A stretch of DNA of 64,000 bases, from NCBI GenBank assembly GCA_963828735.1, contig CAWHFW010000005.1, positions 896,001-960,000 on the forward strand. The letters are read 5' to 3'. Positions 10,896-61,894 of this stretch are shown one piece after another. The position numbers were made by a program, and so were the translations under genes. The first letter of the stretch is position 1. Each line of letters opens with the position of its first letter. The DNA comes from an uncultured Gemmatimonadales bacterium. Lineage in GTDB: Bacteria > Gemmatimonadota > Gemmatimonadetes > Gemmatimonadales > GWC2-71-9. A model generated the notes under the pieces. That model made no database searches. It was not told where the DNA came from and worked only from the letters and a program-made list of their open reading frames with translations.

Positions 10896-11654
10896 CTATC
10901 CCAGCCTCGCCCGAATCCTCCCTCCCACTCCGAGCCCCAGCCGACGCGCCGCCGAGCCGTCCCGCACGGCAATCTCCACCGCGCCCCCCGATCCCACGTA
11001 CGCGAGCAACCCGCCCGCGGGCACGTCGCCGAACGTGCGCCGGAGCGGGCCGATCTCCAGCCCCTCCACCTCGAGCACCGCATACGGGGGCACGACATCG
11101 GTCGTCAGGTTGGTCACCAGCGTGCCGAACCGGTCCACGTAGACGATCTGCCCGATCACGGATTTGCCCTCGTAGTGCGGCTCGTCGTGGGTGAGCCGGA
11201 CGGGGATCGTGGTCAACGGCTCACCGAGCATGTGGAGCGGTGCTCCGCAGGCAAGGGCGGCCGCGGCCGGGGCGAAGAGGTCGCGGCCGTGAAAGGTGGG
11301 CGCCGCGTCACCTGGAACGGGAAGCACGACGGCCTCGACTTCCGTGTCGCGAAGCACGCTCGTGAGCAGGCCGTTGTCCGGTCCGACGAACCAGTGGCCA
11401 TGGGCCCGGAAGGCGAGCGCCGCGCGCGCGGTACCGACGCCGGGGTCGACGACGGCGAGATGGACGGTATCGCGGGGAAACCGGGACCACGCGCGCCCGA
11501 TCAGGTACGCGCCGGCCCGTATGTCGCCCGGCGGCACCGCGTGGGTCACGTCCACGAGGACTGCCGACGGACAGCGGCCGAGCAGCACGCCTTTCATCTC
11601 CGCCACGTAGGAGTCCGACGTGCCGAAGTCGCTGAGCAGGGTGATGAGCGGCAT
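10896..11654 (-). CDS. SAM hydroxide adenosyltransferase / chlorinase-fluorinase family (DUF62)
   Basis: ITLLSDFG, VVDPGVGT, GPDNG, TFHGRDLFAP, YVDRFG. Confidence 0.9.
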   Translation of the reverse strand: MPLITLLSDFGTSDSYVAEMKGVLLGRCPSAVLVDVTHAVPPGDIRAGAYLIGRAWSRFPRDTVHLAVVDPGVGTARAALAFRAHGHWFVGPDNGLLTSVLRDTEVEAVVLPVPGDAAPTFHGRDLFAPAAAALACGAPLHMLGEPLTTIPVRLTHDEPHYEGKSVIGQIVYVDRFGTLVTNLTTDVVPPYAVLEVEGLEIGPLRRTFGDVPAGGLLAYVGSGGAVEIAVRDGSAARRLGLGVGGRIRARLG

Positions 11655-11668
11655 GCCCAAACCTAACG

Positions 11669-13105
11669 TCACGCCCGCGCCTTCTCCCACGCGCCCCACT
11701 GCCACAATGCAGTCATCGCGCCGGCGCGGGCCATTGCGGTGACCGCGAGCATCCACCAGATGCCGACCAGGCCGAAGCTCGCCGACACGATCTCCGCCAG
11801 TGGCACCCGCAAGGCGCTGATGCAGACCACCGCGATCATCGTGTAGAACGTGTAGCCCGCGCCCGTGAGGCCGCCCTCGAGCACGTTCTCGTAGGCCATG
11901 ACGACCTGAGCCACGCCAACGGCGCGGAGGTAGAGCGAGGCATCGCGGATGACGGCCGGGTCGGTAGTGAACACGCCAACCAGAGCGCCTGGCGCGAGCA
12001 GGAACAGGATCGCGAGCAGGCACGGCCCCACCGAGGCGATCCGGGCCGTCAACCACCCCGCCTCCCGCGCCCGCGCGGGCTGACCCGCGCCAAGGTTCTG
12101 CCCCACGATCGTCTCGGCGGCCAGTCCGAAGCCGATGCAGATCATGTAGCTCACGCCCTCGATCTTGTGGCCCACGCCGAGGGCCGCGATCGCCGGGGTG
12201 CCGAACCGCCCGACCACCCGCACGAGCAGCATGTAGATCACGCTGAAGAGCACGCCCGTGAGCATTGTCGGCAATCCGACCCGCACGATCGTGCGCGCCA
12301 CGGGAGCGCTCCAGCCCAGCCGGAGCCCTCCCCGCCGCCGCAGCAGCTCGAAGCCGACGATGAATCCCAGGCCTCGGGTGAGTACCGTCGCCAGGGCGGC
12401 GCCGTAAACGCCCAGCGCGGGGAACGGGCCCCAGCCAAGAATCATCAGCGGATCGAGCACGAGATTGAGGAGCACGGAGGCCCCGAGCAGAACGAACGGC
12501 GTCCGCGTGTCGCCGCCGCTCCGGAACGCCGCGGTAACCACGTAGTATCCGTAGATGAGCACGGCACCGGCGAGCTGCACGACCAGGAACTCGCGTGCGA
12601 GCTCGGCCACGCGTCCCTCGGCGCCCATCACCCGGAAGATCGCAGGCAGGCTCGCCACGCCGCCGACGGCTACCAGAATGCCGAGGCCGCTCGCGAGCAG
12701 CAGCGCCGTGCCCGCGGCACGAGCGGCGCTCTCCGGATCACCTTCCCCGTGGCGGCGCGACGCCACCGCGGTGAGGCCGACGCCCACGAGCTCGCCGATG
12801 GACACGATCACCCAGACGGTGTAGCTCGCGAGCGAGACCGCCGCGAGCGCCTCCGCGCCGAGGGTGCGCCCGACCCAGAAGGTGTCGGTGATGTTGAACA
12901 GGACCTGGAACAGGGTCGTGCCGACGGCGGGAAGCGCGAGCCGGAGGATCGCCGGGCGAAGGGGACCCTCGATGATACCGGTGGCGTCCACGCGCGGCGG
13001 AGGCAGCGCGGGGCCGGCGTCGTGCTGGTCGGCGTACAGACCGGCAGGTGGGACGGTGGGATCGGACGCCGCGCTCTCGAGGCGTCTCGTTGAGCCCTCG
13101 GTCAA
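11669..13105 (-). CDS. MATE-family efflux transporter
   Basis: NITDTFWVG, GDTRTP, NLVLDP, GVYGAALAT, VGQNLGAG; about 12 TM. Confidence 0.9.
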   Translation of the reverse strand: MTEGSTRRLESAASDPTVPPAGLYADQHDAGPALPPPRVDATGIIEGPLRPAILRLALPAVGTTLFQVLFNITDTFWVGRTLGAEALAAVSLASYTVWVIVSIGELVGVGLTAVASRRHGEGDPESAARAAGTALLLASGLGILVAVGGVASLPAIFRVMGAEGRVAELAREFLVVQLAGAVLIYGYYVVTAAFRSGGDTRTPFVLLGASVLLNLVLDPLMILGWGPFPALGVYGAALATVLTRGLGFIVGFELLRRRGGLRLGWSAPVARTIVRVGLPTMLTGVLFSVIYMLLVRVVGRFGTPAIAALGVGHKIEGVSYMICIGFGLAAETIVGQNLGAGQPARAREAGWLTARIASVGPCLLAILFLLAPGALVGVFTTDPAVIRDASLYLRAVGVAQVVMAYENVLEGGLTGAGYTFYTMIAVVCISALRVPLAEIVSASFGLVGIWWMLAVTAMARAGAMTALWQWGAWEKARA

Positions 13106-14212
13106 CTAATTCCGAAGGATGGGGAGCGCGGCGCTTTGGCCGACGGTCTTCCGGCGGAGGTCGGCCGCGATCCGGCGGAGGCTTTCCGCGGCGGGGCTGT
13201 TCGGGTTGGCGATCAGCACCGGCTGGCCGGCGTCGGCCTGCTCGGCCAGGTGGGGCTGGAGCGGGATCGTGCCGAGCATGGGGACACCGATCTCCTCGGC
13301 CAGGCGTTGTCCGCCCCCGGAGGAGAACAGCTCGAAGCGCCGGCCGGTCTCGGGATCGGTGAACGCGCTCATGTTCTCCACGACCCCGATCACCGGGACG
13401 CCCACCCGCTCGAACATCCGGGCGCCGCGCAGCGCATCGCCGACGGCCATTTCCTGCGGCGTCGTCACGATCACCGCGCCCGAGACCTGGGTAGCCTGCA
13501 CCAGTGAGAGCTGCGCATCCCCGGTGCCCGGTGGCAGGTCCACGATGAAGTAGTCGAGCTCTCCCCAATTCACGTCACGGAGAAACTGGGTGACGATCTT
13601 CATGATGATCGGGCCGCGCCAGATGGCCGGCGCATCGCGCTCGACCAGGAAGCCGAGGGACATCAGCTTCACGCCATGGGCCTCGAGCGGCTGGATCTTG
13701 CCGCCGACCACCGGCGGCTTCTCGAAGACGCCGAACATACGCGGGACGTTGGGGCCGTAGATGTCGGCATCCATCAGACCCACGCGCGCGCCATCCTGGA
13801 CCAGGGCGACCGCGACGTTCACCGCGACGGTGGACTTGCCGACGCCGCCCTTCCCCGACGACACCGCGAGGATCCGGCCCAGGTTCGGCTGCGCGGCGGG
13901 CATCGGCGCGCCGGCCGGCGGGCCGGCATCGGACGGTGGGGCGTGCGTGGTGCGCGCGGGGCCGGCTGGATTGGTGACGGTGATCTTGATGTCGTCGCGG
14001 CGCACGCCGTCGACACCCTGGACGGCGGTGCGCGCCTGGCGGACCAGGGTGGCCGGATCCTCGGGGGCGAGCAGGAACGTGAAGCTCACGCCGCCCTGAT
14101 CGGTCACGGACAGATCGCGGATCATGCCCGCCGAGAGCAGGTCGTTGTCGAGCCGCGGATTCTGGATGGCGGCGAGGGCGGCGACGACCCGCGCCTCGAG
14201 CGCGTCGCCCAC
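13106..14212 (-). CDS. mrp: Mrp/ApbC/NBP35 P-loop ATPase (Fe-S carrier family), cysteine-free
   Basis: SGKGGVGKST, DADIYGP, WRGP, DLPPGTGD, TTPQ, ENMS; GTG start overlaps nifU stop. Confidence 0.93.
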   Translation of the reverse strand: MGDALEARVVAALAAIQNPRLDNDLLSAGMIRDLSVTDQGGVSFTFLLAPEDPATLVRQARTAVQGVDGVRRDDIKITVTNPAGPARTTHAPPSDAGPPAGAPMPAAQPNLGRILAVSSGKGGVGKSTVAVNVAVALVQDGARVGLMDADIYGPNVPRMFGVFEKPPVVGGKIQPLEAHGVKLMSLGFLVERDAPAIWRGPIIMKIVTQFLRDVNWGELDYFIVDLPPGTGDAQLSLVQATQVSGAVIVTTPQEMAVGDALRGARMFERVGVPVIGVVENMSAFTDPETGRRFELFSSGGGQRLAEEIGVPMLGTIPLQPHLAEQADAGQPVLIANPNSPAAESLRRIAADLRRKTVGQSAALPILRN

Positions 14213-14442
14213 TACACGGCCTCCACGTGCTTCACCTCGGGGACCGCCTCCCGAAGGCGAAGCTCGATGCCCTGCTTGAGCGTGACGGCGGACGCCGCGC
14301 AGCCGTGGCACGTGCCGCCGAGCCGCAGCAGGAGCGTGCCGTCCTGCTCGTCGAAGTCCACGACCTCCACCTGGCCGCGGTGCGACGCGATGTAGGGCCG
14401 TAACGTGTCGAGAGTCTTTTCGATGCGGTCGATGGTATCCAT
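14212..14442 (-). CDS. NifU C-terminal-domain (Nfu) protein
   Basis: LRPYIASHRG, LGGTCHGC, TLKQGIE. Confidence 0.9.
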   Translation of the reverse strand: MDTIDRIEKTLDTLRPYIASHRGQVEVVDFDEQDGTLLLRLGGTCHGCAASAVTLKQGIELRLREAVPEVKHVEAV

Positions 14443-14502
14443 GGGCCCCGGGCGGCAATTCCTACTAGGTCGTTCGGCAATATAGGGGGAGACAGGAGTC
14501 GG

Positions 14503-15543
14503 TCAACGGGCCGAGCGATGGGCCCGCCGCCCGTTCTCCGCCAGGAAGGCGCGCGCCGCCGTGAGCACGGTGGACTGGACCTCAGCCAGCGAGCCCGGCA
14601 ACGCCAGCCCGGCGGCCTTCGTGTGGCCGCCGCCGCCGAATCGTTTGGAGAACGCGGCCACGTCCACGTCCCCGACGGACCGGAGCGATACCTTCACGCG
14701 GCCCTGGCTCACCTCGCGAAAGAGGAGCGCCATGCGGACGCCCTCGATCGACCGGGGGAATTCCACCACGCCCTCGAGATCGTCGGACGAGACGCCCAGG
14801 CGCTCGATGGCGCCGGGGGGCACCGTCACCCACGCGAGCCCGCACTCGGGCTCGACGACGAGCGTCTGCAGCGCTTCCGCGAACAACCGCGGCCGGCCTT
14901 CGGGCGCGCGAGCGTAGACCTCGAGGTAGATCTGCTCGGGATCCACCCCGACCTCGAGCAGCTCCGCGGCGACTCGCAGGGTGCGCGGCCGGGTGTTGCT
15001 GAACCGGAACCCGCCAGTGTCGGTCAGGATCGCGACGTAGAGCCCGCGCGCCGCCTCCTGGGTGAGCGTCCATCCGTTGGCGACGGCCAGTTCGAAGACG
15101 AGCTCGCCGGTCGCCGCCGCGTCCGGATCCAGATAGCGCGGTCCGGCCGGCAAGAGGCCCTCGCTCACGTGGTGGTCCACGCAGGCGACGGGGACGCCGC
15201 GGGCGCGGACGGTCTCGCTCAGCATGCCCAGGCGTCCGAGGTCGGAGATGTCCAGGACGACGATCGTGTCCGCCCGCCGCAGCTCGCGAATCGCTTCGGC
15301 GGTACGATCGACTCCGGGAAGATCCTCGAACAGAAACTCGAAGCGAGCTGGCGTCGGAGTGGGATTCGTGATCACCGCGTCGATGCCGCGGTCGCGCAGG
15401 AGGTGGGCGAGGCCCGCCTCGCTGCCGAGGCCGTCGCCGTCCGGGTTGACGTGCGTGGTGAGGCAGACCCGCTGCCCGGGCACCAGGGCCGCGGCGAGGG
15501 ACCGCGCCATCGCAGTCCGGTCGGGGGCGAGGATGAACGACAT
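14503..15543 (-). CDS. nrnA: DHH/DHHA1 phosphoesterase (NrnA-like nanoRNase/pAp phosphatase)
   Basis: HVNPDGD, DHH, TDTGGFRF, SLRS, GGGHTKAAG. Confidence 0.9.
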   Translation of the reverse strand: MSFILAPDRTAMARSLAAALVPGQRVCLTTHVNPDGDGLGSEAGLAHLLRDRGIDAVITNPTPTPARFEFLFEDLPGVDRTAEAIRELRRADTIVVLDISDLGRLGMLSETVRARGVPVACVDHHVSEGLLPAGPRYLDPDAAATGELVFELAVANGWTLTQEAARGLYVAILTDTGGFRFSNTRPRTLRVAAELLEVGVDPEQIYLEVYARAPEGRPRLFAEALQTLVVEPECGLAWVTVPPGAIERLGVSSDDLEGVVEFPRSIEGVRMALLFREVSQGRVKVSLRSVGDVDVAAFSKRFGGGGHTKAAGLALPGSLAEVQSTVLTAARAFLAENGRRAHRSAR

Positions 15544-50976: not shown

Positions 50977-51002
50977 TACATCGCGCGATTACATCGCGCG
51001 AT
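50977..51002. repeat. 13-bp tandem duplication at the 3' end of the ETF-QO gene
   Basis: TACATCGCGCGAT x2, each containing the palindrome ATCGCGCGAT. Confidence 0.8.
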
Positions 51003-52644
51003 ACTTCGGCCCGCTTCCGCCCTCGCGCGGCGTCCACCGGGGGCCGAGCACGTCGGTGGCCTTGCAGTCGATGCAATTGGGCGGGTTGACCCTGAGCTCG
51101 TCGCCCACCCGCTCGTAGACGCCGGCGGGACAGACGTGCGAATAAAAGTCCGCGACCTCCGGGTGAATGTCGCGCCCGAGGAGGAGATGCGAGGGAATCG
51201 TGTCTCGCGTCGCGTTGCCCGATTTGAACACCGCGTCCAACTTGCTGAACGTGAGCCGGCCATCGGGCGTGAAGCGGGTGGGCGCGCTCACCGTTCGCCC
51301 GGTGCGCGCGTCCTCCTCCATGGAGATCATGCCGCCGGGAAATCGGCCGGCCGTGAGGGTCATCAATCCCGCCTTCACGCCGCCAGCGTACAGCCCGTTC
51401 TTGAATGCGAGTCGCATGTTGCGGGTGCGATGCAGGTCGGCGAGGACATAGCTGCCCTCCAGCGCGTGATCGTACGCCGCCAGCGCGCCGGCCGACACGT
51501 CACCGCGCTTGAGCGCCGCGTAGGCCGCACGCGCCGCGTAGATCCCCGACTGCATCGCGTAGTGGATTCCCTTGAGCGACGGCACGTCCACCAGCCCCAG
51601 CGTGTCGCCCACGAAGAGCACGCCCTCGCCGCTCCGGCGCACGGGCAGCGCGTAATACCCGCCTTCGGGGATCGTCTTGGCGCCCCACTCGATCAGCTGG
51701 CCACCCTCGAGCTGCCGCCGGAAAAGCGGATGCAGCTTCATTCGCTGCAGCAGCTCGTGCACGTCGAGGTTCGAGTCGTGGTAGTCGAGCCCGACCACGA
51801 GTCCGAGCGCGACCTGGGACTGGCCGAGCGGATACATGAAGCTCCCGCCGAAAGCATCCGGCGGCAGCGGCCAGCCGAGCGTATGGACGACGGCGCCGAG
51901 TGGACGCGGCACCTCCCACAGCTCCTTCACGCCGAGCGCGAACAGCTGCGGATTGGGCGACGAGACGTGCTGCCATTCGCGCCATGCCTGGCCGAGCAGC
52001 CCACGGGTCCCTTCCGCCACGACCGTCACCTTCGCGGTGAGGTCAGTGGGCTCGGTGAAATTGGCGCCCCGCGTGCCGTCACGCGCGAGGCCCGAGGGCG
52101 TGGTCCGCACGCCGCGCACCGCCTGCCCGTTCACCAGCAGTGCGTCCACCGGGAAGCCGGCGAACAGGTTCACGCCGAGGCCCTCGGCGCGGTCGCCGAG
52201 CCATCGGACGATCTCGCAGAGCGATGCGGTGTAGAAGCCGCGATTGTGCATGGTCGGCGGCGTCGGGATCCGCTGGGCCCGGCGCTCGGTCATGAAGTAG
52301 ACCGCCTCGTTGGGCACAGCCTGGCGGAAGGGAAGGTCGGACGGCTTCACATCGGGACACAGCTCGCGAAATGCGCGTGGATTGACCACCGCGCCGGAGA
52401 GACTGTGCTCGCCCAGGCTCTCGGCCTTCTCGAGCACCCCCACGTTGAGCTCGGGCAGGCCGCCGCCCGCTTCCCGATCGCGCTTCGCCAGCTGGGCCAG
52501 CTCGATCGCGCAGGCCAGTCCGGCGGGGCCGGCGCCGACGATCAGCACATCCATCTCGATCGCTTCGGCGCCCGGCGGATCGCGGAGAATGACGCGCTCG
52601 ACAGGCAGCGGCGGCTGGTGGATGATCGGGAGAATGGTTGACAC
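50989..52644 (-). CDS. ETF:quinone oxidoreductase (FixC/FixX-fused type)
   Basis: VGAGPAGL, LSGAV, GVKELW, GAKTIPEGG, KGIHYAM, CPAGVYE; SD GGAGGAG. Confidence 0.93.
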   Translation of the reverse strand: MSTILPIIHQPPLPVERVILRDPPGAEAIEMDVLIVGAGPAGLACAIELAQLAKRDREAGGGLPELNVGVLEKAESLGEHSLSGAVVNPRAFRELCPDVKPSDLPFRQAVPNEAVYFMTERRAQRIPTPPTMHNRGFYTASLCEIVRWLGDRAEGLGVNLFAGFPVDALLVNGQAVRGVRTTPSGLARDGTRGANFTEPTDLTAKVTVVAEGTRGLLGQAWREWQHVSSPNPQLFALGVKELWEVPRPLGAVVHTLGWPLPPDAFGGSFMYPLGQSQVALGLVVGLDYHDSNLDVHELLQRMKLHPLFRRQLEGGQLIEWGAKTIPEGGYYALPVRRSGEGVLFVGDTLGLVDVPSLKGIHYAMQSGIYAARAAYAALKRGDVSAGALAAYDHALEGSYVLADLHRTRNMRLAFKNGLYAGGVKAGLMTLTAGRFPGGMISMEEDARTGRTVSAPTRFTPDGRLTFSKLDAVFKSGNATRDTIPSHLLLGRDIHPEVADFYSHVCPAGVYERVGDELRVNPPNCIDCKATDVLGPRWTPREGGSGPKYRAM

Positions 52645-52753
52645 GACGACTCCTCCAGGTGGTCCGAGCGGCTCGGCAGAATATAACCGCCAGCGGGGAC
52701 TCGCAGGTCGGCGTCGCGCGTCCGTCACACGATCATCCAGCTACTTTTCCCGG

Positions 52754-54013
52754 ATGACGACACCCCCCATTCCCGGCTTCCGTTCCGTCCCGTTCACCGG
52801 CGTCATCTACGTGATGGCCGAAGCCGCGCGCCGCGGCTTTCGCTACGGGCATCCCGACTGGTGCAATCTCGGCCAGGGCCAGCCCGAAACCGGGCCGCTG
52901 CCGGCCGCGCCGCCGCGAGTGCAGCAGGTGCAGATCGGCGTGAACGACCAGGAGTACGCGCCGGTGCCGGGGATCTGGGAGCTGCGCCGCGCCGTGGCCG
53001 AGCTGTACAACACCCTGTACCGGCAGGGGAAGCGGTCACAGTACACCGAGCTGAACGTCTGCATCTGCGGTGGGGGGCGCGCGTCGCTCACCCGCGCGGT
53101 CGCGGCTCTCGGCGAGGTGAACCTCGGCCATTTCCTGCCCGACTATACGGCGTACGAAGAGCTGCTCGACATCTTCAAGCTGTTCACGTCCATTCCCATC
53201 CTGCTGGACGGTGCCCAACGCTACCACTTCGATCTCGAGGCGCTCGAGCGCGAGATCACAGGCCGCGGTCTCTCCGCGCTGCTCCTGTCCAACCCGTGCA
53301 ACCCGACTGGCAAGGTGATTCACGGCGACGAGCTCGCGGCATGGGTCGGGCTCGCGCGCGAGGTCGGCTGCTCGCTCCTCGTCGACGAATTCTACTCGCA
53401 CTACATCTGGACCGAGACGGCGGATGACTCGGGAATGGTCTCGGCGGCGCGATACGTGGAGGACGTGGATGCCGACCCCGTCGTGCTCTTCGATGGCCTG
53501 ACGAAGAACTGGCGCTACCCGGGGTGGCGCATCACCTGGATCGTCGGACCGCACGCGGTGATCGAGGCGGTCTCGAGCAGCGGGTCGTTCCTCGACGGGG
53601 GTGGCAGCAAGCCGCTCCAACGTTCGGCTGTCCCGCTGCTCGATCCCGCCGTGGCATGCGCCGAGGCCGCCGCCATCCGGCAGGTTTTCCTTCGGAAGCG
53701 GAGGATCCTGGGCGACGGGCTTCGCGACGCGGGGGTGCGCTTCGACCTCGAGCCCGAGGGGACGTTCTACTGGTGGGGCGACGTCTCGGCACTGCCGCCG
53801 TCGCTCAATACGGGGATGGCGTTCTTCCAGCGCGCGCTCGAGCGGCAGGTCATATGTGTGCCGGGAGAGTTCTTCGACGTGAATCCCGGCAAGCGCCGGA
53901 GCGGGCGGCCGTCGAGGTTCCGGAACTACGTGCGGTTCTCGTTCGGGCCCGAGGAGCGGGCCGTCACGGAAGGCGTGCGTCGGATTCAGGAGATGGTGCA
54001 GGCAGGGAGCTGA
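52754..54013 (+). CDS. PLP-dependent aminotransferase class I/II
   Basis: NLGQGQPE, SNPCNPTG, DEFY, GLTKNWRYPGWR, VRFSFG. Confidence 0.92.
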   Translation: MTTPPIPGFRSVPFTGVIYVMAEAARRGFRYGHPDWCNLGQGQPETGPLPAAPPRVQQVQIGVNDQEYAPVPGIWELRRAVAELYNTLYRQGKRSQYTELNVCICGGGRASLTRAVAALGEVNLGHFLPDYTAYEELLDIFKLFTSIPILLDGAQRYHFDLEALEREITGRGLSALLLSNPCNPTGKVIHGDELAAWVGLAREVGCSLLVDEFYSHYIWTETADDSGMVSAARYVEDVDADPVVLFDGLTKNWRYPGWRITWIVGPHAVIEAVSSSGSFLDGGGSKPLQRSAVPLLDPAVACAEAAAIRQVFLRKRRILGDGLRDAGVRFDLEPEGTFYWWGDVSALPPSLNTGMAFFQRALERQVICVPGEFFDVNPGKRRSGRPSRFRNYVRFSFGPEERAVTEGVRRIQEMVQAGS

Positions 54014-54097
54014 GCGGCCGAACGGAAGGCAAAGACAATCCGGGACTCTCATCCCGCCGGAGCGAGCCTCGACCCGCGCGGGCCGAGCGCCGAGCCG

Positions 54098-55081
54098 TCA
54101 GGTCGAGCGCGCCTTCCGCACCTCGTCGGTCAACCGCGGCACCACGTCGAACAGGTCACCCACGATCCCGTAGTCCGCGATCTTGAAGATCGGCGCGTCC
54201 TTGTCCTTGTTGATCGCGACGATCGTCTTCGCCGTGCGCATCCCCGCCAGATGCTGGATCGCGCCCGAGATGCCCACGGCCACGTAGAGATCGGGACTCA
54301 CCACCCGTCCCGTCTGACCGATCTGATCGGTAGGCGGACGCCAGCCGTCGTCGGTGACGGCCCGCGTGGCCCCCACGGCGGCATTGCCGAAAGCGGCGGC
54401 GAGATCCTCCACCAATTTGAAATTTTCCGCGGCCCGGAGACCGCGCCCGCCACTCACGATGACCGGTGCTTCGCCGAGATCCAGCGTGGCCGCCGGTTGC
54501 TGAGCGAGCTCGGTCACGACCACTCGCGCCGACGCGGGATCGCCGACTGGCGCGATGGTCTCGATCCGCGCTGTGCGCGGGTGCTCGGTCGCCGGGATGG
54601 CCCCGGGCCGAAGCGAGACGATGGCCGGAGTGCCGGTGAGCCGCAGGGTCACGATCACCTTCCCCGTGTATGCGGGGTGCTGCGCGAGCACCGCATCATC
54701 ACGCATCTCGAACGAGATCACGTCCGAGGCGAGTCCGACGCCGACTCGTGCCGCCACCCGCGGCGCCAGGTCGCGCCCCTCGGCCGAGGCCGAGAAGAAG
54801 GCGACGCGGTAGGACCCACCTTTGAGTCGCTCGGCCGCGGTGGCCGCGAACGTTTCGGGTGCGTAACGATCGAGTCCGGCGTGCTCGACCACGGCTACGA
54901 CGTCCGCCCCGAACCGCCCCAACGCCTCCGCATGCGCCGCGATGCCCGGGGCACCAACCACCAGCGCGTGGACCTGACCGCCCATCGCGTCGGCCGCGCG
55001 ACGCGCCGCCGCGACCGTTTCGAAGGCCACCTTGCGAAGCTCGCCGCCCCGCGATTCCGCGAAGGCGAACATGTCGGCCAT
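54098..55081 (-). CDS. etfA: Electron transfer flavoprotein alpha subunit
   Basis: [33 protein letters not shown]. Confidence 0.96.
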
Positions 55082-55833
55082 CAGAGGACCTTCGCTTCCG
55101 TGCGAAGCCGCCGCACCAGCTCGGGGACCGCGTCGGGCCCTTCCCCGACGAACTTGGGTCCGCTTCGCTCGGCGGGCAGCGCCATCGCCTCGACCGTGAG
55201 CCGCACCTCGCCCAGGGCCGCCGGGCGCACGTCCAGCGGCTTCTTCTTCGCGGCCATGATGCCCTTGAGCGTCGCGAGGCGCGGCCGCGCGATGCCTTCA
55301 TCGATCGAGAGCACGGCTGGGAGGGGGAACTGCACCGTCTCCGCCGCGCCCTCGAGATCGCGCCGCGCGATGCCGCGGCCGGCCGAGACCTCGAGATGCG
55401 AGATGGACGTGACGCAGGGGAGATCGAGCAGCTCCGCCACCATCGGGCCGACGGTGCCGCTGGCGGTGTCGGTCGCCATGCGACCGAACAGGATGAGATC
55501 GAATCCACTGGCGGAGAGCTCGGCGGCCAGCGCGCGCGCCACGGCGAGGCCGTCCACGGGCACGTCGTCCGCCTTGAGCTGCACGGCGCGCGAGGCGCCC
55601 ATGGCGAGGCCCTTCCGCAGCGTTTCCTGCACGCCGTCGGGACCGAGCGAGACGAGGACCACCTCACCGCCTCCCTGCTTCTCGACGAGCTGCAGCGCGA
55701 CCTCGAGGGCGTACCCGTCGAAGTCGCTCATGTCGTACTTGAGCCCAGCCTGATCGAGGGACTTGCGGTCGGCCGCGATGTTGAACCGCAGCTCCATGTC
55801 CGGCACCCGCTTGAGGCACACCGCGATCTTCAA
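55081..55833 (-). CDS. etfB: Electron transfer flavoprotein beta subunit
   Basis: VCLKRVPD, ALE, LAMGA, PRLATLKGIMAAKKKP; TTG start with SD GGAG. Confidence 0.95.
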   Translation of the reverse strand: MKIAVCLKRVPDMELRFNIAADRKSLDQAGLKYDMSDFDGYALEVALQLVEKQGGGEVVLVSLGPDGVQETLRKGLAMGASRAVQLKADDVPVDGLAVARALAAELSASGFDLILFGRMATDTASGTVGPMVAELLDLPCVTSISHLEVSAGRGIARRDLEGAAETVQFPLPAVLSIDEGIARPRLATLKGIMAAKKKPLDVRPAALGEVRLTVEAMALPAERSGPKFVGEGPDAVPELVRRLRTEAKVL

Positions 55834-57124: not shown

Positions 57125-59362
57125 TTAGTCCATGCCGGCGCCCCCGCCCTGGCCCGGTCCGCCCAGCGTCGTCCGCACGACGAGGCGGAACGCCCGGCGT
57201 TGATTGGGCGTGAGAAATCGTTCCACCGCGGCGCCGGCCGGGTTGCCCTGATTGATGTTGAACGTGCCGAAGACCGCGCTCTCGTTCTGGAACAGGTTGG
57301 TGACGATGCCGTTGATCTCCCAGCGGCCGAATTCCACGCCAACCCGGGCGTCGGCCACGAAGTAGCCGTCGAGGGGAGCCGTGACATTGGCCTCGTCGCC
57401 GCGGAGAAACTGTTTGCCGGTGTACCGGGCGTCCGTGCCGACCGAGACGTAGCGGCCGAGCCGCGCCAGGCCGCCGAACTTGATCTGGTGGTCCGGGACC
57501 TGGGGGAACCGCGCTCCGGGCGAGACGTCGTTCTCGGTCGGAAAGGGGTTGATGACTTCCGGATCGTCGGCCGAGCGGATGGTGAAGATGTCGGCCGCGC
57601 TCTGAAAGCTGGCGTGCGTGTAGGCGTAGTTGAGGTAGAGCGAGTGGCCCGCCGGGAAGGCGTACGTCGCCCCGGCCTCGAAGCCCGTCCGGCGCGTCTT
57701 GGCGATGTTCACGAAGAACCCGTCGACCGTGCTCCCTGAGGGCTCGTTCGCGTCACCGAACGGGGTGAGAAAGATGTCGTTCTTGACGTCGGTGTAGTAC
57801 ACCGAGCCGCTGAGCGAGACGCGGTCGTTCGCGTAGCGGAAGCCTCCTTCGAGCGTACTTGCCGTGACGGGCTCGAGCGGCGGGTCGTCGCCCAGAGCGA
57901 ACGGCAACGGGCACGGCGCCTCGGGATCCGCGCAAGCGTTCTCGATCACGGCCGGCGCCCGGAACGCCTGACCCCACGAGGCGAAGAACGAGCCGCCGGG
58001 CATGACCTCGACGCTGGCGCCGAGCCGGGGGTTGAAGCGCTCGTAGGTTGCCGTCGTATCGCCCGAGTGATCCAGCTCGTTCTCGAAGGGGATGCGCACA
58101 TAGTCGTACCGGGCCCCGGCGGACAGCGTCACCTTGTCCATCGTGAGGTCGGCGGCGGCGAACGGCGCCACGTCCCAGAGGGGACTCCGCGCCGCCGTGG
58201 TCTGCGTGCGCCCGACGCCGAACTTGGTCGAGTCGGAGAAGATGTCGATCTCGACCCGCGTGACCTCGCCGTCCACGCCCCCCCGGAGGCTCAGCGCCGT
58301 CGTCTCGTTGAGCACCGTGGTCCACCGGTAGTCCGCGGTGTACCCGAAGCTGTTGTTGTAGCTGATCCCGAACGCGTCCGGATCGTCTTCCTGGTTGATG
58401 TTGAGCCGCTCGGCGCGGTGCCGGCGGAAATACGCCGTGACCGAGGCGCGGCCCAGCCCGAACTGCTTGTAGGCCTGCAGCGAGCCCTGGTAGGCCCAGA
58501 GCTTCTCGTAGTCATTCGCGCTCAGGTTGGAGTCGGGAGACGCGGCGAAGATCGACTCGGGCAGGGAGCCCGCGGTCTGAGCGCTGTCGCGCGAGTAGAA
58601 CGCCTGGAAGCGGATGCCGCTGGTCTCGCCCAGCTTCCCGACGTTGAGGAAGCCCTGGTAGCCCTGCTCGCCGGTCACCTGTCGCCAGCCATCCTCACGG
58701 TTGAAGTCGCCGCCGACGTACCAGTCCAGACCGCTCTTGGTCAGGCCCGAGACGTGGGCCTCGGCCCGGGCGGCGCCGAAGCTTCCGCCCGAGAGCTCGA
58801 TCGTGCCCGTCGTCGGGCCGGTGCCGCGCGCGGTGACGAGGTTGACCGCGCCACCCAGCGCATTCCGACCCAGCAGCGACCCGTTGCCCGACAGGATCTC
58901 GATCCGGTTGATGTGGTCCATTGGAAGCAGGTCGAAGTTGACCTGCGACGCCTCGGGCTCGTTCATCCGAACGCCATCGAGGAACACCGCCACGCCCTGC
59001 GGCAAGCCGACCACCGGCGAAGAGTAGAATCCGCGGCTCGAGAGATTGAGCTTGTACGGGCTCCCGAGATCGTCATAGGTCGAGAACCCGGCGACGCTCT
59101 TGAGCGCGTCGGAAAGGATGCGGGGCTCGTAGGCGTCCACCTGCTCCGCGCTCAGCGTGGTCACGCGGGCGGGCACGCCGGAACCCACCGTCGGGCCGGC
59201 GGCCGGTTGAATGCTCCCGACGACCTCGATCGGCGGGAGCTCGTGCACGGTCGTGTCCGCTCGCGCCTTGGCCGTATCCGCTTTCGTCGTGTCGGCCTGG
59301 GCCACCAGGGCGGCCGGAAGCACGACCAACAGGGCAGCCGCGAGCAGGCTCGTCAGTTTCAT
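57125..59362 (-). CDS. TonB-dependent receptor (no STN domain)
   Basis: Signal peptide, TonB-box-like ELPPIEVVG, plug RGF..LDGV..RIEILSG..ALGGAVNLVT, barrel GARYD, FRAP, NLF. Confidence 0.93.
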   Translation of the reverse strand: MKLTSLLAAALLVVLPAALVAQADTTKADTAKARADTTVHELPPIEVVGSIQPAAGPTVGSGVPARVTTLSAEQVDAYEPRILSDALKSVAGFSTYDDLGSPYKLNLSSRGFYSSPVVGLPQGVAVFLDGVRMNEPEASQVNFDLLPMDHINRIEILSGNGSLLGRNALGGAVNLVTARGTGPTTGTIELSGGSFGAARAEAHVSGLTKSGLDWYVGGDFNREDGWRQVTGEQGYQGFLNVGKLGETSGIRFQAFYSRDSAQTAGSLPESIFAASPDSNLSANDYEKLWAYQGSLQAYKQFGLGRASVTAYFRRHRAERLNINQEDDPDAFGISYNNSFGYTADYRWTTVLNETTALSLRGGVDGEVTRVEIDIFSDSTKFGVGRTQTTAARSPLWDVAPFAAADLTMDKVTLSAGARYDYVRIPFENELDHSGDTTATYERFNPRLGASVEVMPGGSFFASWGQAFRAPAVIENACADPEAPCPLPFALGDDPPLEPVTASTLEGGFRYANDRVSLSGSVYYTDVKNDIFLTPFGDANEPSGSTVDGFFVNIAKTRRTGFEAGATYAFPAGHSLYLNYAYTHASFQSAADIFTIRSADDPEVINPFPTENDVSPGARFPQVPDHQIKFGGLARLGRYVSVGTDARYTGKQFLRGDEANVTAPLDGYFVADARVGVEFGRWEINGIVTNLFQNESAVFGTFNINQGNPAGAAVERFLTPNQRRAFRLVVRTTLGGPGQGGGAGMD

Positions 59363-59396
59363 GGACCGCGATCCTCGGAAGCTATGAGCGGGATTT

Positions 59397-60002
59397 TCAG
59401 CGAAGCAGGAAGGTGTCCGGCATCCGGTGATCGTGACCTTCGGGGCGACGCTCGTAGATCGCGGCCATCACGACCCGGTCGGGCGGCACGCCGACCACGA
59501 GCAGGGCATCGTCGCTCGGCCCGCCGCCATCGAAGTCGAGGCAGCAGTGCTCGGTGGTGACGAGGCCCGCCCCCGCGCCGTCGCGAATCGAGGGCTGGTC
59601 GCCGCGGTCCAGCCGGATGAGGTCCCCGGGGGAGAAGGTTCCCGAGTGGTCGTGATCTTCGTAGAGGCGGAGGTGGTGGACCTTCGCGTCGCGCTCGGCG
59701 ACCAGGGTGATCCCGTCATCTGCCTCGCCCCCGCCGTCCAGGTCGTAGCAGCAGCGGTCGATCTCGACCGGCCGCGGCGACCTGAGGAGCGAGGCGGCGA
59801 GCAAGGCGACGATGACCGATGCCGTCACTCCCCAGGCCGCGCGGAGAAACCCGAGGCGACGACCGGTGTCGGCTGGCCGCTCGCCCCGACGCACCCGGCC
59901 CGCGATCTCGGCGCCAAGCGACGCGCGCGGCTCGAACCGGATGTCGCTGAGCGCGCGATCGAGCTCGGCCAACTCTGGCGGAAGGTCAGGCTCGCCGTTC
60001 AT
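59397..60002 (-). CDS. Putative single-TM anti-sigma factor with Cys/Asp-rich periplasmic repeats
   Basis: ATG overlaps sigma stop; short cytoplasmic helix, TM, then CCYDLDGGGEADD, DHDHSGTFSPGD, CCLDFDGGGPSDD. Confidence 0.7.
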   Translation of the reverse strand: MNGEPDLPPELAELDRALSDIRFEPRASLGAEIAGRVRRGERPADTGRRLGFLRAAWGVTASVIVALLAASLLRSPRPVEIDRCCYDLDGGGEADDGITLVAERDAKVHHLRLYEDHDHSGTFSPGDLIRLDRGDQPSIRDGAGAGLVTTEHCCLDFDGGGPSDDALLVVGVPPDRVVMAAIYERRPEGHDHRMPDTFLLR

Positions 60003-60556
60003 CGGGCGAGCACCTTCCTGAGCCGGCCCAGCACGCGCCAGAGCCGGGTGCGCACGTTCCCTTCGCTGATGCCGAGGATCTGCGCCATCTCGGCGGTGTC
60101 GAGCCCGCTGCCGTAACGGAGCCCGACCAGCTCGCGGTCCGCCGTGCCCAGCGTCGCTACCGCGTCAAGCAGCTGTCCGATTTCCTCTTCCCGGAGCAGG
60201 CGCTCCTCAGGGGAAGGCGCTTCGTGGGCCAGATCGTGCATCGTGCCGATCGCGACGTACTGGCGGAGCCGCGCGCGCCGACGCCAGTCGGCCAGGACAT
60301 TTCGAGCCGCCGCGAGGATCCAGGTCTTCGGTGAGCCCTTCAGGGGATCGAACCGCTCGACCGCGCGGACGACCTTGAGGAATGTCTCGGCGGTCAGGTC
60401 CTCGGCGACGTCGACCAGCGGGACGTGGAAGCGAAAGTAGTTGTAGACGGCCGAACCATGCGCCTCAAACCATTGCCGACAGAGGACTTGCGCCTCATCG
60501 ATCGGGGCGGGGGCTGGCGGCGCATCGCGATGGGGTGGTTGGGAAGCCGGGCTCAC
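59999..60556 (-). CDS. ECF sigma factor
   Basis: AEDLTAETFLK, TWILAAARN, EMAQILGISEGNVRTRLWR. Confidence 0.93.
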   Translation of the reverse strand: MSPASQPPHRDAPPAPAPIDEAQVLCRQWFEAHGSAVYNYFRFHVPLVDVAEDLTAETFLKVVRAVERFDPLKGSPKTWILAAARNVLADWRRRARLRQYVAIGTMHDLAHEAPSPEERLLREEEIGQLLDAVATLGTADRELVGLRYGSGLDTAEMAQILGISEGNVRTRLWRVLGRLRKVLAR

Positions 60557-60566
60557 GCCAGATAGA

Positions 60567-60592
60567 TACGCGCCAGATCGAATTTCGTCACG
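60567..60592 (-). promoter_or_regulatory. Candidate autoregulatory ECF promoter
   Basis: CGTGAC-N16-CGTA ending 10 nt before the sigma GTG; no SD. Confidence 0.4.
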
Positions 60593-60694: not shown

Positions 60695-61894
60695 CTAGAA
60701 GGCGGGCAGCCCCGTGATCGCCTGCCCCACGATCAGCGAGTGCATGTCATGGGTGCCCTCGTACGTGTAGACCGACTCGAGGTTGGCCATGTGCCGCATG
60801 GAGTGGTACTCGACCAGGATGCCGTTGGCGCCGAGCAGGCGACGCGCCTCGCGGGCCGCATCGCAGGCCATGCTGACGTTGTTGCGCTTGCAGAGCGACA
60901 CGTGGTCCGGCGTCATCGTGCCCGCGTCCTTGAGCCGACCGAGCTGCAGGGTCATGAACTGTGCCTTGGTGATCTCGGTCAGCATGTCCACCAGGCGCAC
61001 CTGCTGGATCTGGGTCTGCGCGATGGGCTTGTCGAACATCACGCGGTGGCCGGCGTAGCGGAGCGCCTCGTCGTAGCACGCCATCGCCGCGCCGATCGCC
61101 CCCCAGGCGATGCCGTAGCGCGCCTGCGTGAGGCACATGAGCGGGCTCTTGAGCCCGCCGGACTTGGGCAGGATCGCGTCCTTCGGCAGGTGCACGTCCT
61201 GCAGGTGGATCTCGCTCGTGTCGCTCGCGCGAAGGGAGAGCTTCCCCTTCTGGTCCTTCGCCGCGTAGCCCTTCCTGTCGGTCGGCACGATGAAGCCGCG
61301 GATGGACTTGGGATCGTCCACCGCGCCCGTCTTGGCCCAGACGATCGAGACCGTGGCCTGCGAGCCATTGGTGATCCACATCTTGGTGCCGTTGAGCACC
61401 CAGCCGTCCTTCGTCTCCCGCGCCGTCGTGATCATGCCGCCCGGGTTCGAGCCGAAGTCGGGCTCGGTCAGACCGAAGCAGCCGATCTCCTGCCCGGTGG
61501 CCAGGAGCGGAAGCCAGTGCTTCTTCTGCTCCTCGGAGCCGAAGGCGTAGATCGGGTACATCACCAGCGCGCCCTGCACCGACGCGAACGAGCGGATGCC
61601 GGAGTCGCCCCGCTCCAGCTCCTGCATGATCAGCCCGTACGCGACGTTGTTGAGCCCCGCGCAGCCGTATTCCTCCGGCAGGTTGGCGCCGAACAGCCCC
61701 AGCTCCGCCATCCCCGGGATCAGCTGCTTGGGAAACCGGCCCTCGATGTAGGCCTCACCGATGACCGGAATCAGGTTTTCGTCGACCCAGGTCCGGACCG
61801 TGTCACGGACGGCGCGCTCTTCCTCCGACAGGAGGGTGTCGAGGTTGAGGAAATCCACGCCGGTGAATTGGGATGCTGCAGCTGCGGTGGCCAT
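60695..61894 (-). CDS. gcdH: Glutaryl-CoA dehydrogenase-type acyl-CoA dehydrogenase
   Basis: ELERGDSGIRSFASVQ, CFGLTEPDFGSNP, KMWITNG, NLESVYTYEGTHD. Confidence 0.9.
   Translation of the reverse strand: MATAAAASQFTGVDFLNLDTLLSEEERAVRDTVRTWVDENLIPVIGEAYIEGRFPKQLIPGMAELGLFGANLPEEYGCAGLNNVAYGLIMQELERGDSGIRSFASVQGALVMYPIYAFGSEEQKKHWLPLLATGQEIGCFGLTEPDFGSNPGGMITTARETKDGWVLNGTKMWITNGSQATVSIVWAKTGAVDDPKSIRGFIVPTDRKGYAAKDQKGKLSLRASDTSEIHLQDVHLPKDAILPKSGGLKSPLMCLTQARYGIAWGAIGAAMACYDEALRYAGHRVMFDKPIAQTQIQQVRLVDMLTEITKAQFMTLQLGRLKDAGTMTPDHVSLCKRNNVSMACDAAREARRLLGANGILVEYHSMRHMANLESVYTYEGTHDMHSLIVGQAITGLPAF

Follow-up and report, generated by a model that had tools for sequence, protein, structure and literature searches.

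What signal reaches a sigma factor that is encoded together with an unfamiliar membrane protein and an outer-membrane receptor, and which function does it serve? The question is raised by positions 57,125-60,592 of a 64,000-nucleotide stretch of DNA (the window) from an uncultured Gemmatimonadales bacterium (GCA_963828735.1, contig CAWHFW010000005.1, 896,001-960,000), where a sigma factor of the extracytoplasmic function (ECF) type, a membrane partner and a TonB-dependent receptor (TBDR) are encoded on the reverse strand. A preliminary description, made from the sequence alone, had proposed a metal-sensing system responding to Ca2+, a lanthanide or another metal. The unit is a real, conserved and undescribed ECF variant with a candidate lanthanide sensor. 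Its tracking of XoxF and the family of its receptor point more specifically to lanthanides; the EF-hand structure suggested for the partner did not hold. The chance that a lanthanide-responsive anti-sigma factor here controls lanthanide uptake is judged slightly better than even.

Conservation of the unit and its co-occurrence with XoxF

The sigma factor gene (59,999..60,556, reverse strand, as are all window features below) encodes 185 residues with regions 2 and 4 only (Pfam Sigma70_r2 and r4_2; NCBIfam TIGR02937; all above cut-off). Its best NCBIfam row is that of the BldN family, with a score of 110 bits where 206 is the cut-off. The sigma stop and the partner start share an ATGA (60,002-59,999). 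The partner gene (59,397..60,002) encodes 201 residues and its stop lies 34 bp from the start of the 745-residue receptor gene (57,125..59,362), so that the three-gene layout of the preliminary description is borne out by the window sequence.

This arrangement recurs across the phylum. Of 94 confirmed loci 80 were kept, all of them from Gemmatimonadota. The receptor stands beside the partner in 80/80, of which 78 have it directly downstream in the same orientation; the sigma factor lies upstream in 75/80. Fourteen distant loci were fetched, nine with the Cys-Cys module described below and five without it. In these nine the sigma belongs to a second lineage, which shares 24% identity with the window sigma, and the partner N-terminus is of zf-HC2 type. 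The module directly precedes the same receptor family in 7/9, precedes a two-PepSY protein together with a lutB-like gene in 1/9, and is convergent with xoxF-J-G-lutB-PepSY in 1/9. Lanpepsy is a two-PepSY protein (PMC9988556), and the likeness here is by domain resemblance only. The recurrence of the module with a second sigma lineage is the strongest point for the lanthanide link.

Among 401 genomes of the phylum, 53 carry the module (79 matched, less 26 dropped as N-terminal helices only or weak: G118, G147 and 24 of family f7), 92 the receptor and 77 XoxF. The preliminary description had suggested looking for xoxF in genomes with the triad; XoxF is present in 47/53 module genomes and in 30 of the 348 others. 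The receptor is found in all 53 module genomes and in 72/77 XoxF genomes. For a control TBDR of the same genome, XoxF occurs in 21/65 genomes. Outside the genus of the window, XoxF accompanies the module in 32/37 genomes, the receptor in 51/70 and the control TBDR in 4/48. A D-x-D after WD marks lanthanide use, and a D-Y-D motif is present in 20/20 sampled XoxF loci.

The source genome itself holds six PQQ (pyrroloquinoline quinone) dehydrogenase loci, including a xoxF-J-G cluster with a lutB-like gene, as well as pqqBCDE followed by lutE- and lutF-like genes; no match to lanM, lutA, lutC, lutG or lutI was found in it. An apparent pentapeptide-repeat open reading frame (C5:2261053-2262195), recognised by repeats in overlapping frames, lies between xoxG and the lutB-like gene. 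XoxF systems of Gemmatimonadota are known only from metagenomes, according to PMC10875860.

The partner protein and its periplasmic domain

The partner has 832 homologs (E ≤ 0.001) and belongs to no Pfam or NCBIfam family. Consistent with the earlier statement that it is not FecR-like, Pfam FecR gave no match at E ≤ 1, and a PDB sequence search with the partner profile returned one chance row only (E 1.1). Together with the fold searches reported below, these results leave the partner matching no characterised family.

An anti-sigma role, proposed in the preliminary description, is supported. Residues 1-55 are predicted to bind the sigma factor with a complex score of 0.82, against 0.00 for the best control; the mark used for this score was reached by 116/157 solved pairs and by 2/215 mismatched pairs. 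Complex runs share at least 72% of contacts with a partner pLDDT (predicted local distance difference test) of at least 71. In the models, the predicted contacts with sigma regions 2 and 4 are made by a cytoplasmic two-helix domain formed by residues 7-44 (59,871..59,984). Furthermore, relatives of the partner have zf-HC2 N-termini: when cluster representatives were searched with a profile, 27 of the best 150 of 163 matches paired an HxxxCxxC N-terminus with the periplasmic unit, and three proteins (P0171, P0244 and that of L212) exceed the Pfam zf-HC2 cut-off. In P0268 and P0270 the same N-terminal anti-sigma helices are fused to a TonB C-terminal domain (Pfam, P0268) with no Cys-Cys module, weak N-terminal-only matches of family f7 (L215-L217) adjoin ECF sigmas, and in L052 a small open reading frame resembling the anti-sigma N-terminus has a second promoter-like site ahead of it, at 12071.

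A single hydrophobic stretch at residues 55-73 (59,784..59,840; mean Kyte-Doolittle 2.08) is the candidate transmembrane helix, with seven Lys/Arg before it and two after, a charge bias that suggests a cytoplasmic N-terminus. The periplasmic part then contains a first Cys-Cys/Asp loop, CCYDLDGGGEADD, at residues 84-96 (59,715..59,753), a 12-residue D-x-D-x-S...D loop, DHDHSGTFSPGD, at residues 116-127 (59,622..59,657), and a second Cys-Cys/Asp loop, CCLDFDGGGPSDD, at residues 153-165 (59,508..59,546). The duplicated motif flanking a 12-residue loop is thus present as first described. Across the family, the repeating unit spans ∼50 residues, reads Cys-Cys-x-D-x-D-G-G-G-x-x-D-D-G...Y-E-D-x-D-x-S...G-D-x-x-R, and occurs in one or two copies; the window partner has one full unit and a second that is missing its last loop.

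Conservation of these motifs, whose absence had been named as grounds for abandoning the idea, is strong. C84, C85, C153, C154, D87, D89, D95, D96, E115, D116, D118, D156, D158, D164 and D165 never vary in 120/120 aligned close homologs. Among 126 diverse rows, C85, D96 and G97 of the first loop are kept in 126/126 and C84 and D89 in 125; C153, C154, D158, D164 and D165 of the second are each kept in 125/126. In the 12-residue loop, D116 is retained in 124 rows, D/N118 in 120 and D127 in 120. Positions 1, 3, 5, 9 and 12 of 100 such loops are D, D/N, S/N/D/T, S/T/D and D, although positions 1, 3, 5 and 12 were already fixed by the pattern used for the search; the 126-row counts are free of this bias.

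The invariant Cys pairs also bear on an alternative in which the domain senses another metal (Ca, Cu, Ni or Zn) through Cys-Cys thiol ligands and the receptor imports that same metal. This reading gains from the fact that the Cys-Cys pair supplies the sole cysteines from the motif onward in 9/21 single-repeat zf-HC2 relatives, and from a receptor relative in Ideonella that adjoins nickel- and copper-related genes. However, the loops are rich in carboxylates and have no conserved His or Met except H152, periplasmic cysteines are usually oxidised, and the tracking of XoxF and the lut, xox and PepSY neighbours would be unexpected for Cu, Ni or Zn. We regard this alternative as improbable.

The domain model for residues 78-184, built from 126 rows, has a pLDDT of 85.6 and a pTM (predicted template modelling score) of 0.79; it replaced a poor full-length fold from 40 rows (pLDDT 53.6). 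It is made up of seven strands, has no helix and places all three acidic motifs in loops, so that the domain is predicted to be a beta repeat of seven strands carrying three acidic loops. In this model the 12-residue loop sits between beta strands rather than in a helix-loop-helix, and it is EF-hand-like by sequence only. With the periplasmic domain as query, Foldseek gave no match at E ≤ 0.001, and the best VIA-align match had Z 4.9 and a root-mean-square deviation of 4.9 over 79 aligned residues. The fold searches returned beta-meander and propeller-blade matches only, which is no proof that the fold is new.

The loops nevertheless resemble the Dx[DN]xDG loops of EF-hands, lanmodulin and calcium blades, which likewise place Asp-x-Asp-x-(Asp/Ser/Gly) between secondary-structure elements (PMC3123361). 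The partner loops differ in having no flanking helices, a Cys-Cys ahead of them, a ∼50-residue four-strand repeat and no clear fold match. Lanmodulin in particular bundles helical EF-hands whose loop position 2 is Pro, whereas the partner domain is all-beta in the model and has R, V, L or A at that position.

The receptor and its family

The receptor consists of a Plug (from residue 63) and a barrel and has no STN domain by Pfam, in agreement with the preliminary description, and the three motifs quoted there are present in its sequence. Its relatives were sought in 72,556 plasmid records, of which 11 matched at E ≤ 1e-30 and eight were examined. One of the eight adjoins lanmodulin (E 5e-38 to PDB 6mi5), and four, from Burkholderiaceae, adjoin PQQ dehydrogenase or pqq genes. 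The lanmodulin-adjoining relative led to L109, a complete lutA-B-C-(D)-E-F-G-TBDR-lanM-lutI cluster (lut gene order per PMC7391723). The L109 receptor served as the LutH reference, assigned by synteny and distinct from the AM1 protein itself.

The following observations place the window receptor in the LutH family, as the preliminary description had suggested. It is the only match of the L109 receptor in the source genome (E 1e-64), and it shares the plug and C-x6-C-x-L...DPP motifs with the family. Furthermore, in a 44-row FastTree phylogeny, 22 Gemmatimonadota receptors (support 100) join 16 LutH-family rows from Proteobacteria (support 97), and PqqU falls outside this grouping. LutH of Methylorubrum extorquens (META1p1785, Mext_1853) has its receptor family in common with the window receptor, in sister clades. 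The receptor likely imports lanthanide.

PqqU (YncD) is the closest solved TBDR by sequence (E 1e-14; 21.6% identity) and is widespread in Gemmatimonadetes (PMC12124388). It was rejected as the identity of the window receptor. PqqU binding positions Y99, K274, R365, N477 and R536 are not kept, so that five of six are lost and only R304 aligns with Arg (positions from PMC12124388). The receptor scores 90 bits on NF041535 (PqqU), for which the cut-off is 1200. In addition, the best matches of E. coli PqqU in the source genome are two other genes (E 2e-44 and 4e-40), with the window receptor at 7e-16. One PqqU-like gene (C2:488719-490915) and pqqE (C5:1224947-1226039) are each split over two frames, possibly by assembly indels, and a D-Y-D PQQ dehydrogenase lies ∼5 kb from the second PqqU-like receptor (C2:973353-982379).

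The nearness to PqqU and the pqq neighbours of the four Burkholderiaceae relatives are also what would be expected if the operon served quinoprotein cofactor supply. The loops would then be structural Ca2+ sites, as Dx[DN]xDG loops often are (PMC3123361), and the signal would be a ligand or protein (a metal-chelator complex, metal-PQQ or apo-XoxF) docking on the beta domain; XoxF has been proposed as a periplasmic signal (PMC11845868). Against this stand the lost PqqU binding positions and the better PqqU matches elsewhere in the genome, and the fact that the invariant residues of the partner are mostly carboxylates themselves. This explanation is unlikely, if worth keeping in view.

Promoter, proposed mechanism and relation to known systems

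The candidate autoregulatory promoter noted earlier before the sigma gene is present and conserved. In the window (60,566..60,591) it comprises a -35 GTGAC at 60,591-60,587, a 16-nt spacer and a -10 CGTAT at 60,570-60,566. GTGAC-N16-CGTA precedes the sigma gene in 74/76 upstream regions with a single spacer length, compared with 0.18% of 20,000 random windows, and a matrix trained on 71 distinct sites finds it in 79/80 loci. The -10 ends 9 nt ahead of the sigma GTG start, and the sigma mRNA is probably leaderless or short-leader. The -35 resembles those of ECF278s1 (GTGAC/GTATA) and ECF118 (TGTGAC/AACC), whose anti-sigmas and taxa differ (PMC7826278). A scan for sigma-70 promoters and terminators found none. 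Contigs from four soil metatranscriptome sets cover parts of all three genes; they prove neither expression nor co-transcription, because no listed piece spans two genes and DNA carry-over is possible.

Where the sigma gene is absent or displaced, a site outside the training set stands directly before the partner (L004, L006, L011, L017, L065), and in L065 a site also precedes the convergent receptor. The window promoter has the top matrix score in the whole source genome, in which only 12 matches exceed a score of 12 and none of these lies at xoxF or pqq. A xoxF regulon was rejected, as 20/20 sampled xoxF loci have no site before xoxF on its strand. Because the source-genome sites miss xoxF and pqq and no sampled locus has a site before xoxF, the regulon looks like the operon itself, small and without xoxF. 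Scattered sites at xox loci are inconsistent (L241, L248, L253, L255; a weak 11.9 before xoxJ in L212), and a strong matrix site (20.9) in genome G111 is divergent from xoxF (L255:873, reverse strand).

Some promoter and copy-number variants were also seen. The -35 lies inside a GC-rich inverted repeat upstream of sigma in nine loci (L030, L059, L064, L069, L079, L014, L019, L020, L055), perhaps the terminator of the upstream gene doubling as promoter. L004, L006 and L011 have promoter, anti-sigma and receptor without a sigma gene in another genomic context, and probably represent additional copies that are driven in trans. In L075 (1635-6381) a single receptor follows two sigma/anti-sigma pairs in tandem, and genome G066 has two module copies.

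In the mechanism we favour, the partner would hold the ECF sigma factor inactive, and its Asp-rich loops would bind periplasmic Ln3+, with the Cys pairs as disulfides bracing the acidic loops. The metal-loaded domain would be stable and keep sigma bound. Under lanthanide scarcity the apo domain might be cleaved, by analogy with regulated proteolysis, or loosened, and the freed sigma would drive GTGAC-N16-CGTA and raise the level of receptor, which would supply lanthanide to XoxF-type dehydrogenases. Because the receptor has no STN domain, a FecA-type relay is unlikely, and the partner probably receives its signal in the periplasm instead of by way of the receptor.

The sign of the response is less settled, and activation by scarcity appears moderately favoured. 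In M. extorquens the lutH promoter shows fourfold repression by La (PMC7391723) and the LutH-like level of Methylosinus trichosporium is lower with Ce (PMC12482762), both of which fit activation by scarcity; what the preliminary description called switching on may, given the lutH promoter, be a scarcity response. Activation by the presence of metal falls somewhat short of even, and it is kept in consideration because the Methylobacillus flagellatus receptor is La-induced (PMC9988556). A more ambitious proposal sees in the Cys-Cys/Asp beta repeat a new fold that binds lanthanides selectively and controls sigma directly. It would be a one-protein periplasmic sensor, employed with both sigma lineages across Gemmatimonadota, and would set rare-earth uptake in abundant soil methylotrophs. 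This we hold tentatively, at rather less than an even chance.

Several observations weigh against the lanthanide interpretation. XoxF is missing from 6/53 module genomes and 20/92 receptor genomes, and the co-occurrence counts include kin and are not independent. No promoter site precedes xoxF in the sampled loci. Among the 80 close loci, lutB-like genes flank only two and PepSY one, and lanM and lutE were found in 0/80. Three of the eight examined proteobacterial receptor relatives have no PQQ or lanthanide neighbours, and L083 adjoins nickel-/copper-related genes. The window receptor is only 27.6% identical to the synteny-defined L109 LutH, the outgroup of the tree is six long rows that carry a long-branch warning, and TBDR substrates are not securely readable from phylogeny (PMC12124388). 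Loops of the Dx[DN]xDG type commonly serve as Ca2+ sites, frequently with a structural role, and turn up in many folds (PMC3123361), and the partner loop lacks the lanmodulin-type proline (PMC10875860) and ends in Asp. The complex score may stem from a resemblance to sigma/anti-sigma pairs that have been solved.

The usual neighbours of the close loci weigh on the same side, namely gcdH (69/80) and etfAB (etfB in 58/80), and in several genera the receptor is kept at the gcdH-etf locus without the sigma pair (L223, L224, L225, L226). These findings would suit an envelope- or redox-stress sigma/anti-sigma pair with a disulfide switch, linked to the receptor by inherited gene order alone. However, module and receptor are also found linked in other families, alongside the second sigma lineage and away from gcdH/etf, no module genome is without the receptor, and a regulon with so few matrix matches is tiny for a stress sigma. 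A stress role is judged improbable.

The gene order sigma, single-pass anti-sigma and TonB receptor is that of FecI-FecR-FecA (ECF239/240/242/243 type; PMC7826278). The window unit differs in having neither a FecR domain nor STN, in a partner with candidate ligand loops of its own and in its conserved autoregulatory promoter. Cnr relies on a helical Ni/Co sensor that is a protein of its own, and its output is efflux, whereas here putative sensor and anti-sigma form one chain, the domain is all-beta and acidic, and the target is a likely importer. Common to CnrH-CnrY-CnrX (ECF291; PMC7826278) and the window unit is an ECF sigma under periplasmic metal sensing, here putative, through a membrane anti-sigma.

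Envelope lanthanide sensing coupled to transcription has likewise been proposed for MxbDM, MxcQE, MxaY/MxaB, PedS2/R2 and sigma-54 activators (PMC11845868, PMC9988556, PMC7391723). Those regulators are two-component or sigma-54 systems acting mostly on dehydrogenase genes, whereas here an ECF/anti-sigma pair has an uptake receptor as its visible target. In contrast to the lut cluster, the window receptor lies outside any lut ABC/lanM cluster, and the available part of PMC6850437 reports no sigma or anti-sigma near Mext_1853 (lutH) in M. extorquens PA1. No description of the sigma/partner/receptor system was found in the literature searched, which did not extend to subscription journals, and the part of the ECF supplement searched (PMC7826278) has no mention of 'lanthan'.

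Bacterial lanthanide sensing is unsettled, and the likely sensors named in the available part of a recent review are two-component systems and XoxF itself, with no others (PMC11845868). The unit offers a 110-residue soluble domain, a defined promoter and a rebuildable sigma/anti-sigma pair for a direct test. If the favoured reading is true, the unit would represent a novel type of lanthanide sensor and would explain uptake control in XoxF-bearing Gemmatimonadota. It would also provide a new scaffold that binds lanthanides, as well as a genetic biosensor ready for use with rare earths.

The unit is flanked by ETF (electron transfer flavoprotein)-quinone oxidoreductase-like, etfA, etfB and glutaryl-CoA-like acyl-CoA dehydrogenase genes (50,989-55,833 and 60,695-61,894), all of them ordinary housekeeping functions. 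In L052, a two-PepSY lipoprotein (10971-11504) and a second receptor copy (13035-15248) follow the operon. An MscS-type gene with transmembrane helices (PF05552; 56,047-56,919) comes after the window receptor, and its cluster is found in 21/80 loci; MscS has also been reported beside xoxF3 in Verrucomicrobia (PMC10875860).

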